From NCBI GenBank assembly GCA_008369845.1, contig MRSU01010563.1, positions 1-34,926 of the forward strand: 34,926 nucleotides of DNA, given 5' to 3'. Below the pieces are notes generated by a model that saw only the letters and a list, made by a program, of their open reading frames with translations, ran no database searches and had not been told where the DNA came from. The DNA is from Trichomonas gallinae. Lineage: Eukaryota. This document shows, one piece after another, positions 1,168-26,209 of this stretch (position 1 is the first letter of the stretch; every line of letters starts with the position of its first letter). Made by a program: the position numbers and the translations under genes.

Positions 1168-1944
1168 ATAGCCAAATTTCAAAATGGGATCTTTAATTTT
1201 AGAGTTATCCATGATTACACATGTTCTATTGGTACAGAATTAAGTGAATCAAATGAAGTTGGAAATGCTTTAAATGTAAATGTTCCACAAAACACACATA
1301 TTGATATTCCATCATATGCCATATACAAAGATAGAAGTTATATTGTAACTGAAACCGCATTATTTGCTTTTCGAGGTTATTCAAATATTACTTCATTCCA
1401 TATCCCGAAAACAATCAAAATATTACGATGAGATGCATTCGCTTTCACATCTATTACAAAAATATTTATCCCAAAAACAGTTGAACAAATGTTGCGTGCC
1501 CCATTTTCTGGTTGCAAAAAATTAACTAAAGTAGAATTCGAGTTCGGTATCAGTATAACATACCTCGGCGGTGACATATTTTGGAACTGCATTAATTTAA
1601 ATTTTGTTATACTTCCAATATATATAAAGTTTACTAATAATACGTTTAAGGTTTCTAATTTATCAAAACTTTATGTATGCAATATAGATGCTGTTGAAAA
1701 TGATTTTAATCAATTTAAAAATGCATACAATATTCCTACTATATACGTGCGAAAATGTTACAAAGGCACAACATTCATGGGAAAAAGTTTCACAAGAATG
1801 ACAGAAGATTCAATTTGCTTTTACAATAAACCTCTCGAAAATACATCATACGATGATCAGTTCTTCAGCATTTTCCCATATTTAGCAATAATGCCAATCT
1901 CAACATGCATTGATCAGCAAATTTTTGTCCTTGCTTATTCTTAA
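1168..1944 (+). pseudogene. BspA-like (TpLRR) leucine-rich repeat gene with no initiator ATG and one internal TGA
   Basis: Frame 1 reads IAKFQNGIFNFRVIHDYTCSIG...YIVTETALFAFRGYSNITSFHIPKTIKILR*DAFAFTSITKIFIPKTVEQMLRAPFSGCKKL. The TGA at 1429-1431 is in frame with the track ORF 1489-1944. Confidence 0.8.
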
Positions 1945-3560: not shown

Positions 3561-4667
3561 TATCAATCATTTATGCAGATATACAAAATGATTTTAATAA
3601 AAAAAAATCATGAAAAGGATTTAAGTTATACATCAACATATAGAATAAGATTCTGATAAAACTTTCTTGCTAAAAAAAAATTTAATTTTTCCCCAAAATT
3701 CTACAGATAAGACCTATTGCTTTTATAACACGCTGGATGAAGGAATGAAATAAAGTACCATAACATTTTATACATCTTTCAACAGAATATCAAACAATAT
3801 TTATGAAATGTACAAAATTCTATCTTATTACCAAAATAAACATGGAATGATGATGTATAATGTAAAAGTCACAATAATCTTTCATACGAACCAAAAAATC
3901 TAAAAAATGCCCAATTTTGAAACAAAATATATTTGTTCACTCTAGTAACAGGTAATGATTGTTTATATTCACTGGAAATTTAATGACAAGATTGAGTATC
4001 TAAGATGGAGAACCATTCACAAAATAGGTCAACGAATGAAAATTAATTTACAATAAATCATCATCATCAAAAAGTGACATCTTCTCATTTTTCATCATTT
4101 TTAAAACTCGGGATATCACATACCATAATTGCGACACCATTATTCCTTAAAACCCCACTTTCAAATCATCAGAAACAAAAAAATTAAATAATCAACCAAG
4201 CCTCAGTTCAAGACAAAACTCAGCTGTTCTGTAACGAAATGCGGAACGAAAAGCGACAGATTTACATGTCAGATTTGACACGTAAAGTGTCCAAAAGAAA
4301 CACTATAGACAGGGGGTGCATCCATTTTGTCACTTTTCAAATGATTTTGATGCTGGATTGTGAAATAAAATACTAAACTTTTGAGATAAAGAGTTTCCAG
4401 AAATATAAGAAGATAGTATCAGCATCAGACATTGCGCCTGAAGCAAGTTGAAACTCTTTCATTTTATGACGAAGACTGGTAAGAGCGAATTCCATTTGTC
4501 TTCAGCGTGATTTAATTTATGTAAAAACAAAATTATGTCAAAAATCATATTTTTACATTTTGCAAGATTTAGAACGATTTGCCCGGGTCCAACGAAGATT
4601 CCACACTTTTATTTTGGCCATATTTGAATTCAGTACTGTGTAAAATCTATGATTATCAGACTTTTCA

Positions 4668-4931
4668 TTCCAATATGTATAAAATTTATTTCAGAGACCT
4701 TTAAGGTTTCTAATTTATCAAAGCTTTATATATGCAATATAGATGCTGTTGAAAATGATTTTAATCAATTTAAAAATACATACAATATTCCTACTATTTA
4801 CGTGCGAAAATGTTACAAAGTCACAACATTCATGGGAAAAAGTTTCACAAGAATGACAGAAGATTCAATTTGCTTTTACAATAAACCTCTTGAAAATACA
4901 TCATACGATGATCAGTTCTTCAGCATTTTCC
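4668..4931 (+). repeat. Direct 264-bp duplicate of 1613-1876 (3' part of the BspA-like pseudogene)
   Basis: Collinear and near-identical from ttccaata to cagcattttcc. It accounts for track ORF 4649-4945 (FKVSNLSKLY...DDQFFSIF). Confidence 0.95.
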
Positions 4932-6401: not shown

Positions 6402-6451
6402 GTCACTTTTTAAAATTTTGTCACGTTTTTAAAACGATTATTGTCACTTTT
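6402..6451 (-). promoter_or_regulatory. Cluster of AAAAGTGAC (GTCACTTTT) promoter motifs upstream of the CFAP100-like gene
   Basis: Exact copies at 6402 and 6443, variant at 6420. AAAGTGAC is a described T. vaginalis upstream motif. Confidence 0.7.
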
Positions 6452-8225: not shown

Positions 8226-8443
8226 GTCACTTTTGTTCATTTAAATCGTCACTTTTTATGAAAATTATTATTGCTCATGAAAAGTTTTCTTTTGATTTGT
8301 TTTGAGTCATCCAGATATCATAATCAATAATAATAGATCATGATATATATTATATCATAAATAAACAATGCCGAATATTATAATAGTTAATGAAAAAGTT
8401 GAAAAATAAAATGATGAATTTTTTATAGAAAACAAAAAGTGAC
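8226..8443. promoter_or_regulatory. AAAAGTGAC motifs upstream of the ankyrin gene
   Basis: Copies at 8226(-), 8248(-) and 8435(+). Confidence 0.65.
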
Positions 8444-9402: not shown

Positions 9403-9786
9403 TTCTCATGAATGTCATTCTGCCAAAAGTCATTAATGTATTCCTTTGCTTCATCATCGGTTTTTGATGAAACCATTAAGTTTTAAAGAAGCTAGTTATT
9501 GAACAATATCAGGAATAAATAGATCAACTTGTAATTAATTGACATGATTCGTCTTTGTATCGAATCTGGTATTAACTAGTAAAGACCCTCGCAGTTCCTG
9601 GAATAGATGTCAACAATGAAAACTTCAGAAAAAGGCTATCATGAAATAGTCAAGCTTCTTCTTGGAATAGACATCAACGCGAAAGACAACGGCAAAAGGA
9701 TAGCCTTGACTTGGGCTACTAACAATGGACATATTGAAATTGTAAAATCGTTGAAAACTCATGGGGCATCAATATTGAAAAATTAA
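9403..9786 (+). pseudogene. Decayed ankyrin repeats, the former 3' part of the 8446 gene
   Basis: Broken frames give LVKTLAVPGIDVNNEN and, in the gene's own frame from 9628, EKGYHEIVKLLLGIDINAKDNGKRIALTWATNNGHIEIVKSLKTHGA. Confidence 0.8.
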
Positions 9787-15046: not shown

Positions 15047-16180
15047 TTACATAAAAACGAAAACAAAGACTTGAATAATCTTCATATTATGTATCTGAAC
15101 GTATTCAATTCTTCCAGTAGGATATAATGGACCTAGGTATGTGATAGCAGCTTCGCCATTTCCCGAATGGCCATTGGTGGTTATTTTAGGATTGAGGCTA
15201 GTTGGCATTGGATATTGACCATCGAGCATTTTGCCATCATGGAAGTAAAATCCTGAAAAGTGGAACATACTGTTTATGCTGTTCATGTCCGCTTCAACGG
15301 GAGAAGGAGACATACAGCCTTTGTATCCACTTATATAGGAATTTCCTCCTGCTGAAGAGGTTTCAGTTCCCCATTTCGTGGAAAAAATGGTGAAATCCAT
15401 TCCACCTCTATATCCAGACCCGCAGCCTGCTGATGATCCTCCAATATCAACGCCATAGTCCTTACCTGTGCATCCAATGCCTAGATTGCCAAAAGTTTGA
15501 GTTGCACCTAGCGATCTATCACTAACATTTTTTGATATTAGATCACCTCCATTCCCACCTTTATATAATCTATAGTGTGTGTTTATTTCGGTGCCATTTG
15601 TGGAACATGCACCACCTCCTGATCCCGCGACAATGATGCGACTTTTAATTGATTTTTGGAAAAGTGACGTAGTATTGTCAATTTTGTTCATATCATAGTA
15701 TACTAGGCGAAGATCGACTGCTCCGCCTCCACCCGCGCCACTTTCCGAAAAATTGTAGTCTCCTGTGTCTATTCCTGCATTTCCACCTCCATTCCAGCCT
15801 CCAAGGCTTCGAACGAGCTCTCCATGCAAGTATGAGGTTTGATCTTGGCCTTTCCCGCCGATGTAAAGGAAAAATTTTGTCGTAGATGGAATCCAGATCT
15901 CACCACTGACGTAAGAACCTTTTCCGCCAGAATCAGGATGCATAATTATTTCATTTTGATATCTTGCATCACCGCCTTGAGAGCCCCAAAGTTCGACAAA
16001 ATATCTGCCTTTTTGGAAAGTTACTTCGTATGGGGTGCATTTTGTAGTACTATTGCAAGGATAATTAAATACGTATTTATTTTCTCGTTTTGTAACGTTT
16101 TCTGTTCCTAATTCTTTGGAATATAGCGAATAAGTTAGCTTTGGTGTCCGTGCTGCTATACATAATACTAATATCAACAC
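15047..16180 (-). CDS. Glycine-rich (ALK/LTK-type Gly-rich domain) surface-type protein with no in-frame ATG at its N-terminus
   Basis: GRYFVELWGSQGG, GGKGSYVSG, YIGGKG, GAGGGGAVDLR, RIIVAGSGGG, GGNSYISGY; hydrophobic C-tail. The frame opens with GTG after TGA; first ATG is at 15943 (residue 80). Confidence 0.8.
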   Translation of the reverse strand: MLILVLCIAARTPKLTYSLYSKELGTENVTKRENKYVFNYPCNSTTKCTPYEVTFQKGRYFVELWGSQGGDARYQNEIIMHPDSGGKGSYVSGEIWIPSTTKFFLYIGGKGQDQTSYLHGELVRSLGGWNGGGNAGIDTGDYNFSESGAGGGGAVDLRLVYYDMNKIDNTTSLFQKSIKSRIIVAGSGGGACSTNGTEINTHYRLYKGGNGGDLISKNVSDRSLGATQTFGNLGIGCTGKDYGVDIGGSSAGCGSGYRGGMDFTIFSTKWGTETSSAGGNSYISGYKGCMSPSPVEADMNSINSMFHFSGFYFHDGKMLDGQYPMPTSLNPKITTNGHSGNGEAAITYLGPLYPTGRIEYVQIHNMKIIQVFVFVFM

Positions 16181-20393: not shown

Positions 20394-22823
20394 ATCAATT
20401 TAGTTGATAATGGACAAACACTTACATACTTTAAGGGCTCAACCACAGGTGTTACTGTTCCTGCAACTGTTCGAACCATCTATGGAAAATCAGCTACAGA
20501 TTATTGCTGCAAAGATGTAACAGATAAACTCAGAGAATGCATATTTGCAGAAAACTCGAACTTAGACACAATAGGATCTTATGCTTTTTACAATTGTTCA
20601 AAATTAGCCTCAATTGATTTTAGACCTTGCACAAAATTACGCCTAATAAAAGAATATGCTTTCCAATACTGTTCACTCTCTTCAGTCAATTTTCCAGAAG
20701 GAATAAAAGAAATACAAACATTAGCATTTTCTTTCAATAAATTACAAACTCTAAGTTTACCAGCAAGTTTAGTTACATTGGGATTTTCAGCTTTCGGAAA
20801 AAACGATTTACTTCAATCCGTAGCATTTACTCCAAATTCGTTATTGGACAGTCTTCAAGTAAATATTTTCTTTTCCAGTAGTCTAACTTCATTTATTGTC
20901 CCACCAAACGTTCAATCGATAAATGGGCTCGCATTCCAAGAGACAGGAACAATTGTGTCCATATCTGTTGATCCAGAAAATAAATATTTCAAAGACATTG
21001 ACAAAAAAGCAATTTACAACCAAAATGGAACAGCTATTTATTATTTTGCGTCAGGTATAACTGGAGAATTTACAATTCCTGAAGGAGTGTTGGAAATTCA
21101 AAAAGGTTGCTTTACTTCTTCGCATTTAACATCTCTCACGCTTCCAAAAAGCATAAATAAAGTTTATGATTTTGCTTTCATGAGGAGTTATATTACAAAC
21201 TTTAATATTGATGATTCACTCAATTCAATTGCAATTGGCGCTTTTGAATATTCATGGAATTTAATCAGCATTCAATTACCATCATCGCTCACGGAAATTA
21301 GCACGAGGTTGTTCAAATATTCAAGAATAGAATCAATTGTTATTCCAGATAAAGTCACAAAAATCGGTGATTCAGCTTTCGAATATTGCAAATATTTGAA
21401 AAATATTTCTTTACCATCAAATCTAAAAAGTCTTGGAGATAATGTTATAGCTTCTTCACCTTATGCAAAATTTATTTTCCCGCCAGACTCAGGTTTATAT
21501 GTAAGCGATGATCAACTAATTATGGATAAGCTAAATACGACAATTTATTTATATCTTGACAACAAAAACACTGTAAATATTTTACCAACAATTTTAACAA
21601 TAAAAGGTTCTGCGTTCAGAGATAAAGCAGAGTTAGTTACAATATCTTGTTCTGGTTCTCCACAATTACAAAATATTGGAGAATATGCGTTTTCTAGCTG
21701 CAAGAAACTGAAAAATTTCATTAGTTTTTCAACTTTGGCTACCATTGGAGATTATGCTTTTCAAAACACAAAAATTAGTCCTTCTCTAATTTTTGGATCT
21801 CAGTTAACATCAATAGGTGTTAATGCATTCATTGGACTTGATATATCATCAATATCTTTCAATTCTGTTAATCCTTTGACTATTTCTGATTCTGCTTTTA
21901 TGTATTGCTCGAAAATCACAGAAATACAATTTAACTGTCGGTCAGATATAAATTTAAAAAATTCCGTTTTCAGCGGTCTCAGTTCATTAAATACAATTAC
22001 TTTGTCTGACGAAATCAAAACAATTGGATCTTTCTGTTTCTCAAATTGCAGTTTAACAAGAGTCAACTTCGAATCAGCAACTTTTGGACCTGGAGTGTTT
22101 CCTCAAGGTTTATTCGCAGATTGTAAAAATCTTGAAACAATAAACATTCCGACAAACATAACAACACTCGAAAGCCAATGTTTCCAAAACAATAAACTCC
22201 GAAGAATAAGTTTGCCAGTTGGCTTATATGAACTTGGTAGACAATGCTTCAAAGGTTGCTCCTATTTATCTGAAATAATTATTCCTGACAATTGTGCATT
22301 GCAGCTGATTAATGTTGGAGTGTTTGACGGATGCACTAGTTTGTCTTCATTCAGCGATTTTGTATCTGGCTATTTTGTTGTTGACTCGGGAGCTCTTTAT
22401 AACAAACAAAGAACAAACTTGATCGTTTATCCACCAGCTTCACCAAATAATTTCTTCGCCGTTGCATTTTCTGTTACAACTATTTCAGAGAGTGCTTTTA
22501 TTGGATGCATCAACCTTCAAACGATCCTCATTCCTGATGGAAGTGTTACAAGAATTGGAAGCAGTGCATTTGAAGGCTGTAAGAACTTAAAATATATCAA
22601 TATTCCAATTTCTGTAAAAGAAATTGGCGAAAATGCTTTTTTGGGATGCAACAAACTTAACTGTGGACAAATAATTCAAAATAGAACAGTTGAATTTCGT
22701 CAAAAACTTATCCGTGCAGGCATCAATCCAAAGTCATTTAAGGACTGTGAAGTTGTTACATGCAAAGTATCATCATATACATATTTGAATGTATTTATAA
22801 TCCAGGTATTTATACTAATATAA
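20394..22823 (+). CDS. BspA-like (TpLRR) leucine-rich repeat surface protein, 809 open codons, no N-terminal ATG
   Basis: Many LxxIxIPxxVxxIgxxAFxxCxxL repeats. The frame is open from 20394 (INLVDNGQTLTYFKG...LDTIGSYAFYNCSKL). ATG 20358 is cut off by TAA 20391; next ATG is at 21180. Hydrophobic C-tail. Confidence 0.88.
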   Translation: MNLVDNGQTLTYFKGSTTGVTVPATVRTIYGKSATDYCCKDVTDKLRECIFAENSNLDTIGSYAFYNCSKLASIDFRPCTKLRLIKEYAFQYCSLSSVNFPEGIKEIQTLAFSFNKLQTLSLPASLVTLGFSAFGKNDLLQSVAFTPNSLLDSLQVNIFFSSSLTSFIVPPNVQSINGLAFQETGTIVSISVDPENKYFKDIDKKAIYNQNGTAIYYFASGITGEFTIPEGVLEIQKGCFTSSHLTSLTLPKSINKVYDFAFMRSYITNFNIDDSLNSIAIGAFEYSWNLISIQLPSSLTEISTRLFKYSRIESIVIPDKVTKIGDSAFEYCKYLKNISLPSNLKSLGDNVIASSPYAKFIFPPDSGLYVSDDQLIMDKLNTTIYLYLDNKNTVNILPTILTIKGSAFRDKAELVTISCSGSPQLQNIGEYAFSSCKKLKNFISFSTLATIGDYAFQNTKISPSLIFGSQLTSIGVNAFIGLDISSISFNSVNPLTISDSAFMYCSKITEIQFNCRSDINLKNSVFSGLSSLNTITLSDEIKTIGSFCFSNCSLTRVNFESATFGPGVFPQGLFADCKNLETINIPTNITTLESQCFQNNKLRRISLPVGLYELGRQCFKGCSYLSEIIIPDNCALQLINVGVFDGCTSLSSFSDFVSGYFVVDSGALYNKQRTNLIVYPPASPNNFFAVAFSVTTISESAFIGCINLQTILIPDGSVTRIGSSAFEGCKNLKYINIPISVKEIGENAFLGCNKLNCGQIIQNRTVEFRQKLIRAGINPKSFKDCEVVTCKVSSYTYLNVFIIQVFILI

Positions 22824-23220
22824 GAAATATTTTCACTATATTATAGTATATAAAAAATAATATGACAGCTTTAATTAATGCTTCAATATTTTCATCTGCA
22901 ATTTAATTGTTTTTGTAAAGATGCTAGATTCCACTTCCATACCTAATATCCAATAATTTGGATATTCTGGTGTGACATTCTCACCTCCATTTTGAAATAT
23001 TTAAATTATAATTCTTAATAATAATGAGGTAGCGTTTATTAATGCTTCAAAAACTATACATCTAACAATTTTTATAATTTTGATATCTAGACTCTATTTT
23101 GAAGACTTTTTAGTTGCTTTTTCTATCAATAGAGGTCATCCTTGGTCATTTAGTTTAGCAAACCTTGTGAATTGAAAAGTGACAGTTGGGATAATGATTT
23201 GTAAAAATTATGCATGATAA

Positions 23221-24147
23221 AATATAGATAATACATTAGATGTATGGAAGTATTTCTTTAAAACTAAAAATCCTGCTGTTTCAACTGGTAATAATCCCAA
23301 TATCAAATATAATGAAAATATGGATATATTATTATCATCATTTTTATATTTAACGTATCGAGCGATTGAAATAACTTCCAGTAATGTTAACTTATGTATA
23401 AGTTATTCGTCTTTCATCGATGATTCTGCAGCTACAAACGAAAATATCAGTGCAGGAGCAGTAGGAATGTCATCTGGAAAGCGCTTTTTCGTATTCAACA
23501 CAGTGTTCAGCGGCTGCCAAACATATCTAAAAAATGGAGGCCAAACATTCAGAATAACGAATGTGACAAATAAAACAGTTATCGGCGCGTCACTTTGTAG
23601 AAATGGCAAAGAATATCTGCCATCTGACACTTTACAATACAAAACCGTTTTTGTTTTTGATTACGACAATTTAGCATTCCAGGAGACAAACACATCTTAT
23701 AATGAAGTCTACGAAAAATGTTTTGGACATTTCAATTATGTCGATGGATATATTTCGTATTGCAATTTTAATAATGCAAAATCTTTTCAAAGTGGTCTAT
23801 ATTTAGTAAATGTTAGTGCAATATATACATTTTGCAATTTTATCAATAATAATATAACAAAAAACGAATTAATAAGAACTGATCTTAAAGATGTCTATTT
23901 TTTGAATTCAAATTTCAAAAATAATAATGCACCACAATATTTTAAAAGTTACACAGATAACAAAGCCATTTTGTATAGTTGTGATTCAGATAGTTATAAC
24001 AATGCTACAACTATTAATTCTTTTTCGAAAGATATGATTTTTAAAATAACATACCATGTTCATAACACTGAATGTTCAGTTTATAATGACGATATTTATT
24101 TGAATAACTACATCATTATGCTGTATTCCATTGTAATTATTCTATAA
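23221..24147 (+). CDS. Right-handed beta-helix (Pmp/pectin-lyase-like) surface-type protein, tandem paralog A
   Basis: Repeated CNFxNN/SNFKNN and AGAV/GGQ motifs; hydrophobic C-tail. Similarity to paralog B extends upstream of ATG 23320 to 23221 (NIDNTLDVWKYFF). Confidence 0.65.
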   Translation, partial: NIDNTLDVWKYFFKTKNPAVSTGNNPNIKYNENMDILLSSFLYLTYRAIEITSSNVNLCISYSSFIDDSAATNENISAGAVGMSSGKRFFVFNTVFSGCQTYLKNGGQTFRITNVTNKTVIGASLCRNGKEYLPSDTLQYKTVFVFDYDNLAFQETNTSYNEVYEKCFGHFNYVDGYISYCNFNNAKSFQSGLYLVNVSAIYTFCNFINNNITKNELIRTDLKDVYFLNSNFKNNNAPQYFKSYTDNKAILYSCDSDSYNNATTINSFSKDMIFKITYHVHNTECSVYNDDIYLNNYIIMLYSIVIIL

Positions 24148-24435
24148 TTTTTTTTTTTTCATATGTATCAATAGATGATAGAATTAAAGCATAGTGTTTG
24201 ATAAAAGTAGGAGTATTAAAGTATAAATTTATAATTTACTGATTTTATAAATGATGATTTAAAATTTGATAATTTAATATACTTGTCAATGATATAGCTA
24301 CGCCAGAATGCGATAAACTAATAATTTTTAAACAAATATATAGTCACAAATGCAGAATTTAAGGAAATAATCCAAGACAAATAATAATAAAAAGTGACAT
24401 ATTTGAATATAAAAAATGCAATTTCAACACGATAG

Positions 24436-25371
24436 AATATAGATAACGCATTAAATGTATGGGAGTATTTCTTCAATATCAGGAATGCAGCAAAAGTCAC
24501 TGGAACCAATCCATCGTTAGCATGTGAAAATTTAAATTATGATATTTATTTGTCATCATTTTTATATATATCAAATAGAGCAGTTACATTAACAACGAAA
24601 AATGCCAATCTCTGCATCAGTTATTCATCATTTGTTGGAAATTCCGTGCCGAAGGAAGATATTGAAGGTGGAGGCTCAATTTTGATGTCAAATGGCAACA
24701 ATTTTTTCCTTTTCCAAACAGTTATCACTGAATGTCTAACAGAATCAAAATCCGGAGGCCAAGCATTTAGAGTCACTGTTCCAAATAAAACGGTTATAGG
24801 TGTCACTTTCTGTCGCAACGGCAAATATTCTGAGTCATCTAAATCAATTGATTGCAGGACGACTATAGTTTACGACTATGGAATTCTTGCTTTCCAAGAA
24901 TCTAATTTCACAAAAAATGAAGTTATAGATAGATGTTTTGCGCATATTTTCTCTCTCGATGGTTATATTTCTTATTCAAATATTAATAACTGCAAATCAT
25001 ATGAATTTGGAAGTTATATCTTTAACTGCTCGCTTATATTAGTAAGCTGCAATTTCATAAATAACCAAATAGTAACAGAAGAAATATTTAGAATATTGCA
25101 TAAAGATATTTATTTTATAAATTCAAATATAAAAAATAACCAAGCATCATCTTACTTTGGATCATTGACAAATAATAGAGCATTACTATACAATTCTGGC
25201 ATTGATAATACTAATAACAATCAATATTTTGAAATTATTAATGAATATGAACTCACACAAAACTATAAAATAATTTATAAAGTTCATAAAAAACAATGTT
25301 CCAATTGTGATGTCAGCATTCATTTTAGTATGTATATTTTTATGTTTTATTCAGTTGTTTTATCTATTTAA
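24436..25371 (+). CDS. Right-handed beta-helix surface-type protein, tandem paralog B
   Basis: Collinear with paralog A (NLCISYSSF, GGQxFR, NKTVIG, CRNGK, LAFQE, DGYISY, CNFINN). The frame opens at 24436 (NIDNALNVWEYFF); first ATG is at 24685. Confidence 0.65.
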   Translation, partial: NIDNALNVWEYFFNIRNAAKVTGTNPSLACENLNYDIYLSSFLYISNRAVTLTTKNANLCISYSSFVGNSVPKEDIEGGGSILMSNGNNFFLFQTVITECLTESKSGGQAFRVTVPNKTVIGVTFCRNGKYSESSKSIDCRTTIVYDYGILAFQESNFTKNEVIDRCFAHIFSLDGYISYSNINNCKSYEFGSYIFNCSLILVSCNFINNQIVTEEIFRILHKDIYFINSNIKNNQASSYFGSLTNNRALLYNSGIDNTNNNQYFEIINEYELTQNYKIIYKVHKKQCSNCDVSIHFSMYIFMFYSVVLSI

Positions 25372-25630
25372 ATATATTATATGTCAAATAGCTGCTAAAA
25401 ATATGTTTAAAATCTTAATTTCATCATTTTCTTCTCTGTCTTCCAGCTAAAAAGTTTCTGCAACTTCTTCTTCACTTTGGATTTGATAATTCTGTATAAT
25501 ATATAACCAATCGCTGCAAAGCACCCAATCTAATATGGATCTGGTTTATAATCAACCTAGTTATATTGTATCTTATCCTATCTACGAGTTAGATTTTTCA
25601 TGATAAAAGTGAGCGTATTTTTTTTTGTAA

Positions 25631-26209
25631 ACTTACTTGATAAGAATCCTACCATCAAAAAATGGTGATTTAAACGGACTAACACTACGTTATCCAACTC
25701 TCTTTGCTTACACTGCTGATGGCGTATTTAAACCTCATTATAACATTAAATTTCTTTTTGATAGAAATAATAATAGTGAGTGGTGCTCTGCATATGCTGA
25801 TAATCAGAGCTTTTCTATATATATTGCAAATGGCGCATATATAACACCCACAAATTATACATTTCATGTTGGAGGATATTCCGATCCATATTTTGCTCAA
25901 AATTGGACTATATCTTGTTACTATAACAGTAACTGGACTATAATAGATAACGTGATTAACAATACAAGGATAAATAAAAACCATGTTGCTGAAACGTTTG
26001 AAATTTCTAACATAACAACATGTTCAGCTGTCAATTTCAGAATGAATGGATTGTCTATGTATAACGGACTAATATGGTGCATGACAACAATGGAAATATT
26101 TGGTGAAATTTCATTCGATAAAGGAATGAGGTTCTTTTGCGATACATGTAAACATGTTCCAATCTACCAAATGAAATTTAGCTACGTCTACGTCTTGATC
26201 TTGATTTAA
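25631..26209 (+). CDS. F5/8 type C (galactose-binding-like) domain protein with C-terminal hydrophobic tail and no N-terminal ATG
   Basis: LFDRNNNSEWCS, ITPTNYTF, QNWTI, WTIID, MEIFG pattern. The frame opens after TAA 25628; first ATG is at 26042. Confidence 0.65.
   Translation, partial: TYLIRILPSKNGDLNGLTLRYPTLFAYTADGVFKPHYNIKFLFDRNNNSEWCSAYADNQSFSIYIANGAYITPTNYTFHVGGYSDPYFAQNWTISCYYNSNWTIIDNVINNTRINKNHVAETFEISNITTCSAVNFRMNGLSMYNGLIWCMTTMEIFGEISFDKGMRFFCDTCKHVPIYQMKFSYVYVLILI

Follow-up and report, generated by a model that had tools for sequence, protein, structure and literature searches.

Tandem trichomonad genes under coding constraint lack an opening ATG and suggest a candidate AUA start in genes with hydrophobic tails

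Introduction

Since the genome of 2007 it has been asked whether the thousands of transcribed "pseudogenes" of Trichomonas represent dead genes or genes that are read in a non-canonical way (10.64898/2026.08.31.748405). The "RT genes" of this organism, BspA genes included, are apparently broken and are yet proposed to be translated, which makes them similar to the two genes studied here, A and B (Kay et al. 2012, PMC3378599, in its available part; 10.64898/2026.08.31.748405). The evidence for their translation is mRNA in the more recent study and, in the available part of the older one, tentative immunofluorescence. Unlike A and B, which lack a start at their 5' end, the "RT genes" have stops between two models annotated with an ATG. 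Another similar locus is the "lncRNA_ATG" of T. vaginalis, which consists of an ATG, then TGA TGA, then an ATG-less frame of about 1 kb, a layout like that of A (Woehle et al. 2014, PMC4223856, in the portion at hand). It was transcribed from its native promoter and no tagged protein was detected, according to the same portion. The M2 motif, which precedes A and B, is also present among the transcribed PSEUDO and LNCRNA loci of T. vaginalis in that portion of the study. There the locus was read as non-coding, with no selection test, link to a protein class or candidate start codon, and in this it differs from our reading of A and B.

The predicted products of A and B resemble the parabasalian Pmp-like and BspA-like proteins, which have a beta-helix, no detectable signal peptide and a hydrophobic or Cys-containing C-terminus (PMC2843621 and PMC6701047, in their available parts). 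Missing start codons do not appear as a feature of a protein class in the available parts of these two studies (Noel et al. 2010, PMC2843621; Handrich et al. 2019, PMC6701047). Our literature search, mainly of openly available papers and including the main text of the 2026 preprint, found nothing on class-wide ATG-less or non-AUG-started trichomonad genes.

The third point of comparison is wider. Initiation at near-cognate codons (AUA, CUG, ACG) is known for single eukaryotic genes. A and B resemble these genes in that coding sequence is conserved before the first AUG and a near-cognate codon stands in good context. They differ from them in that the near-cognate codon is here apparently the sole start, and in that it is tied to a protein class across unrelated families.

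Results

The genes A and B are conserved upstream of their first Met

The window, i.e., the whole stretch of 34,926 nt of Trichomonas gallinae DNA that was analysed, carries trichomonad genes (BspA-type LRR, NlpC/P60, DUF3447, glycine-rich PF12810, kinase). Their named relatives are from Trichomonas vaginalis G3, with ~36-48% identity, and the Atlas clusters are from Parabasalia. The NlpC/P60 gene (198-1007, + strand) includes a bacterial SH3 domain (Pfam), and this family has been described as laterally acquired in Trichomonas. Downstream of the DUF3447 gene there is a short ankyrin-like frame (9607-9783, + strand) that is possibly a separated C-terminal piece. The features of A, B and the genes compared with them are listed in Table 1.

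Table 1. Position of the genes, leaders, motifs and candidate starts in the window.
Feature	Position	Strand	Description
M2 motif before gene A	23175..23184	+	AAAGTGAC core; named in PMC4223856 (available part)
Gene A leader	23194..23220	+	in-frame ATG, seven codons, then TGA TAA; behaves as non-coding
Out-of-frame ATG mini-ORF of A	23210..23227	+	M-H-D-K-I-stop; overlaps the first codons of A; underlies the frameshift alternative
Gene A	23221..24147	+	open 308-codon frame without 5' ATG; first in-frame Met at codon 34 (23320)
Candidate start ATA, codon 2 of A	23224..23226	+	putative; A at -3, G at +4
M2 motif before gene B	24390..24399	+	AAAGTGAC core
Gene B leader	24409..24435	+	ATA where A has its upstream ATG; out-of-frame ATG at 24416; TAG at 24433-24435
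Gene B	24436..25371	+	open 311-codon frame, tandem paralog of A; first in-frame Met at codon 84 (24685)
Candidate start ATA, codon 2 of B	24439..24441	+	putative; A at -3, G at +4
BspA-like gene, hydrophobic tail	1168..1944	+	behind M2 motif; no 5' ATG; ATA after the stop
Glycine-rich (PF12810) gene, hydrophobic tail	15047..16180	-	no 5' ATG; ATA at codon 8
BspA-like LRR gene, hydrophobic tail	20394..22823	+	809 codons; first Met at codon 263
F5/8 type C-like gene, hydrophobic tail	25631..26209	+	first Met at codon 138; ATA at codon 4

The first-pass annotation described A and B as diverged tandem paralogs, both open for about 310 codons. This holds, since neither frame has a stop or a frameshift (308 and 311 codons), and the two proteins are identical at 150 of 310 positions (49%, BLASTP). 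The alignment also places a Tyr of B opposite Met34 of A, as had been noted. We computed dN/dS with the Nei-Gojobori method and the JC correction, and intervals of pN/pS by bootstrap. The whole frames have a dN/dS of 0.35 over 307 codons and a dS of 1.24 (1.1-1.4 across the segments analysed). For the segment before the first Met, where the annotation had proposed this analysis, dN/dS is 0.33 when the segment is that of A (codons 1-33; pN/pS 0.50, bootstrap 0.27-0.90) and 0.28 when it is that of B (codons 1-83, of which 82 aligned; pN/pS 0.48, bootstrap 0.34-0.68). The amino-acid identity of these segments was matched in at most 3 of 1000 runs of neutral simulation, and the full frames remained free of stops in none of 2000. 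These results show that the sequence upstream of any in-frame ATG remained under coding constraint once the genes had duplicated, in line with the initial claim. A dN/dS near 1 or scattered lesions, the marks of a pseudogene, were found in neither gene.

The segment before Met34 is also part of the predicted fold. Modelling of the protein of A with AlphaFold and a 12-sequence alignment resulted in a right-handed beta-helix (pLDDT 77.5; 26 with only 3 sequences) that ends in a hydrophobic C-terminal helix, with pLDDT below 50 at residues 1-10 and 275-308. A helix (residues 8-13) and a strand (19-24) precede Met34 in the model, as a predicted cap and first strand. The best structural match (VIA-align) has a Z of 21.4 and an rmsd of 2.9 over 233 aligned residues and is one of many tied beta-helices; all 50 matches listed align from residues 4-18 of the model onward, which indicates that the part before the Met belongs to the predicted domain. 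Together with the constraint on this segment, its place in the fold makes simple pseudogenisation unlikely, as the annotation had argued. On the basis of their sequences, A and B thus appear to be real, functional-looking genes without an opening ATG.

The modelled beta-helix gives no function to A and B. The Atlas places A/B at 0.96 to beta-helix clusters of Parabasalia, with a recognition value below the usual level. Foldseek gave no match at E <= 0.001, the best hit of a PDB sequence search had an E of only 0.11, and Pfam assigned no family to A (Chlam_PMP at just E 0.22 in one of 12 family members). A and B cannot be classed as Pmp-like: they have no Chlam_PMP repeats, and, unlike these proteins, they lack a cytoplasmic tail and a Pfam Pmp match and end directly in their hydrophobic tail.

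We found 11 relatives of A and B, eight with HMMER and three more by cluster look-up. Two of them (P0078 and P0084) begin with M-P-I-D-V-W, at residue 4 of A and without a signal peptide, so that the ATA at codon 2 of A and B lies two codons before their Met. The others begin at residue 8 (one), near residue 29 (one), at the position of Met34 (four) and at Met84 of B (one), and two of the 11 have a long hydrophobic N-terminal extension. Given the four relatives called from the equivalent of Met34 and the two with an extension, the N-terminal boundary of the family is not uniform. The relative closest to B, P0001, ends early. Word-index protein searches with A/B returned only P0001 and P0083, and metagenome scans for the A/B family and for the N-terminus of the glycine-rich gene gave no match. 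Scans of viral (46 loci) and prokaryote genomes (17 loci) gave only distant matches, and L047, the locus inspected, is bacterial.

The stop and the spacer before the two genes are compatible with chance, and the motif is a common one

The two genes do have a stop at the same place: the motif is followed by exactly 36 nt that end in TAA in A and in TAG in B. This arrangement had been regarded as evidence in itself, together with the constant spacing and the motif, and here our results differ. An inherited stop was kept in both copies in 16-38% of the neutral simulation runs, and a TAA directly precedes the ATG of three of the 13 ordinary genes of the window. The spacers are identical at 17 of 36 positions, for a neutral expectation of 16.9 +/- 2.9. 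We conclude that the shared stop is incidental. The motif, AAAGTGAC, is the published M2 motif of Trichomonas (Smith et al. 2011, as cited in the available part of PMC4223856), which the citing paper, in that part, considers non-functional. It has 16 sites in the window, for 1.08 expected, and also precedes ordinary genes; it is not a marker of ATG-less genes. In 5 of 17 rows of T. vaginalis BspA genes, an in-frame ATG follows it after 0-13 nt (by eye; PMC2843621 Table S1, in its available part). A role of M2 as a special element or as an in-frame GTG start was rejected because stops intervene and the frame varies between genes, and a fixed distance from motif to start because this distance differs across families. 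Other M2 sites are 1-2 nt before the ATG at 8436 (+) and 4336 (-), and antisense pairs occur near gene ends (6402-6450 and 8226-8255, - strand).

The annotation also held that the ATG-less layout predates the duplication. This is the parsimonious account for the stop and for the ATA at codon 2, but A retains an upstream in-frame ATG (23194), 9 nt past its M2 motif. Out-of-frame ATGs are common to the leaders of A (23210) and B (24416): they read H-D-K/R-I and end at ATA-TAG, and the upstream ATG of B has a strong context (AAAATG-type). Stops account for 4 of 44 leader codons in the genes with hydrophobic tails described below (hand counts that exclude the defining stop), compared with 8.2% in intergenic sequence, and at such a rate the leaders look untranslated. 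The codon-usage score of 35 leader codons is -0.06 +/- 0.10 (intergenic -0.14, body 0.11). RNA structure around the start has a z of about -1.5 relative to mononucleotide shuffles and is not common to the genes, and a bacterial promoter scan, irrelevant here, gave matches at chance level.

The 5' ATG is missing in all genes of the window that end in a hydrophobic tail

We counted 19 genes in the window, excluding fragments and antisense frames. Six of them, including A and B, have a hydrophobic tail, with a mean hydropathy of 0.97-1.97 over the last 15 residues (below 0 in the other 13). The 5' ATG is absent in all six and in none of the 13 (Fisher 3.7e-5; p ~1e-4, by hand, when A and B are counted once). 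The first Met of the tail genes is at codons 34-263, and the 13 others have a Met within 20 codons of the start of the frame, as judged from the frames alone and not from relatives. The six represent four unrelated families, and the four genes other than A and B are not related to these two. The bodies of the six contain one stop in 2255 codons, an in-frame TGA at 1429-1431 in the BspA-like gene 1168..1944. The window includes a near-identical 264-nt copy of the 3' part of this BspA-like gene (~1612-1876), a partial duplicate at ~4667-4931 (+).

Four of the six tail genes have an upstream ATG in frame (p 0.04, with a chance of 0.25 for each gene). In the 809-codon BspA-like LRR gene this ATG (20358) is cut off by a TAA, and an ATC follows the stop. 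The F5/8 type C-like gene has an upstream ATG (25600) in a different frame; the peptide read from it (25600-25630, +) is hydrophobic and spans ten consecutive T, where an assembly error is possible. An Ile codon occurs within four codons of the last stop in all six genes (five independent; chance 0.44 each; post hoc). This codon is ATA in four of the five independent loci (chance 0.20 each, p ~0.01; post hoc). Overall, the candidate codon is ATA in five of the six genes and ATC in the remaining one.

Nineteen relatives of the glycine-rich gene have their first Met where it has an ATA

For the glycine-rich gene we found 75 relatives, of which 74 were aligned (P0072 was excluded). Its ATA at codon 8 falls in the column of the first Met in 19 of the 28 relatives that have a residue there. 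It is 32 residues before the YPC motif, and the relatives start 16-39 residues before it (median ~31). P0088, which is identical to TVAG_336060 at 269 of 274 positions, has an open and conserved N-terminus that lacks Met throughout residues 2-128. Exactly 29 residues before its YPC motif, at the position of the first Met in five members of its subfamily, it has an Ile, known from the protein sequence alone. The full-length metagenome relatives (P0007-P0064, ENA) mostly have no signal peptide at the start and have a hydrophobic tail at the end.

Thirteen of the 15 relatives from T. vaginalis are annotated from an internal Met and none is cut at the C-terminus. Cuts at the N-terminus are found in one of 44 relatives from ENA, two of 14 from Logan and none of one from JGI. 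The contrast between T. vaginalis and the metagenomes is partly due to gene callers, and those used for metagenomes probably write GTG and TTG starts as M. The T. vaginalis count is itself inflated by annotation habits, as three BspA models of this species pass over an intact ATG further upstream (by eye). Judging from these sequences, the class-level ATG-less pattern extends to T. vaginalis. The available part of PMC2843621 (Table S1, sheet B) shows, for many BspA models of T. vaginalis, that an LRR-like frame stays open over the 150 nt before the annotated ATG (e.g., by eye, TVAG_002470, 003000, 004550 and 008860), which indicates that these models are truncated at the 5' end.

Discussion

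The position of the Ile codon in the six genes, the column of the first Met in the glycine-rich gene and P0088, and the context of the ATA in A and B lead us to favour initiation at AUA. We give about even chances to the proposal that A and B start at the ATA of codon 2, a case of near-cognate initiation, and that other genes with hydrophobic tails do likewise. The M2 motif would then mark the region in which a short 5' leader begins, and the stop before the frame would simply belong to this AT-rich leader. The start codon of the ancestral gene would have turned into ATA before the duplication. The ribosome would initiate at this ATA, or re-initiate there after the tiny upstream ORFs, at low efficiency. 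The product would begin at D-N-x-L-x-V-W without a signal peptide and would probably be held by its C-terminal tail. More speculatively, a low and leaky output might suffice for a large surface repertoire, or tune it. We infer all the translational steps of this proposal from sequence. Against it, the upstream ATGs, in and out of frame, should capture scanning ribosomes, and ATA is frequent in this AT-rich DNA. Woehle et al. (2014) conclude, in the part of PMC4223856 at hand, that alternative start codons are not used. The reverse primer of "lncRNA_ATG" in that part encodes, by eye, a hydrophobic tail that is followed by the tag, and this position of the tag may or may not explain the absent protein.

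Alternatively, translation might begin at the upstream ATGs and reach the main frame by recoding, either through readthrough of nearby stops or through a +2 shift at the ATA-TAG of A and B. The sequence AUA-stop is a +2 frameshift site in Euplotes. Such recoding would account for the excess of in-frame upstream ATGs in the tail genes, which also occur in TVAG_039300 and TVAG_349960 (by eye), for the 36-nt spacing retained without indel, and for the alternative ATG that A and B have in the same frame (H-D-K/R-I-TAG). Readthrough has been proposed for Trichomonas, tentatively in the available part of PMC3378599 and with mRNA evidence only in 10.64898/2026.08.31.748405. We nonetheless regard recoding as unlikely. 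It requires readthrough of two consecutive stops in A and of three in the BspA-like gene 1168..1944, and B has no in-frame upstream ATG. The frequency of stops in the leaders is the neutral one, no stop lies near the boundary in P0088, and no single route suits all six genes. The conserved frame of the glycine-rich gene begins long before the stop of the out-of-frame ORF, and three readthrough constructs yielded no protein (PMC4223856, available part). A universal +1 shift at the stop of the upstream ORF was rejected, as it gives the wrong frame in the glycine-rich gene. If it is instead the mRNA that is edited, A-to-I conversion at AUA, read as AUG, would make the start codon. This mechanism is known from other organisms and fits the ATA candidates of five of the six genes; the ATC of the sixth speaks against it, and we hold it to be highly improbable.

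The tail genes might also be silent cassettes that acquire a start codon, and a signal peptide, through trans-splicing or when DNA recombination moves them into an expressed locus. An N-terminal signal is normally required where extracellular-type domains are combined with a hydrophobic tail, archives of start-less antigens exist in Pneumocystis, and the missing start follows the protein class across four unrelated families. Against this, no type A or type B 12-nt Trichomonas splice-acceptor motif is found near A or B with up to two mismatches (the two and five such matches in the window are at chance level), and we found no junction sequence common to the six genes. Most relatives start at the boundary with a Met and without a signal peptide, and the tail genes are scattered among ordinary genes and have bodies nearly free of lesions, which makes cassettes quite unlikely. 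The same bodies bear on the view that the genes are dead, having lost their starts too recently to have decayed. T. vaginalis has many pseudogenes, some transcribed (PMC2914791 and PMC4223856, available parts), the one locus tested gave no protein (PMC4223856, available part), one tail gene has its internal stop and P0001 is short. We consider this view very unlikely, because all six genes would have been hit in a target of three bases, against a single stop gained in 2255 body codons, the ATA at codon 2 is common to A and B across a dS above 1, and the glycine-rich relatives of T. vaginalis are cut 13 times at the N-terminus and never at the C-terminus. Finally, the first Met inside the frame, codon 34 in A, could be the start of the protein, and the conservation upstream a relic. 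Several relatives keep Met34 and four of 11 are called from it; yet B has no Met at that position, the first 33 codons of A are constrained and supply the cap and the first strand of the predicted fold, and the first Met of the other tail genes lies within the domain, at codons 80-263. We consider such a start highly improbable.

Whichever codon is used, the locus defines a subclass that can be tested, with intact bodies under selection, no 5' ATG and a hydrophobic tail by which it can be recognised. If AUA starts are real, many of the ATG-less genes of trichomonads would be truncated in annotations or dismissed as pseudogenes, and many models of surface proteins, with the proteomic databases derived from them, would be wrong at the N-terminus. 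It is possible, at somewhat less than even chances and on the strength of the sequences compared here, that trichomonads translate the whole class of surface proteins with hydrophobic tails (beta-helix, BspA, glycine-rich and F5/8-type) from AUA or AUC starts. Much of the surface repertoire would then have shortened gene models or be listed among the transcribed pseudogenes and lncRNAs. Trichomonads would be eukaryotes with class-wide non-AUG initiation, in which the output of surface proteins could be gated at the initiation of translation.
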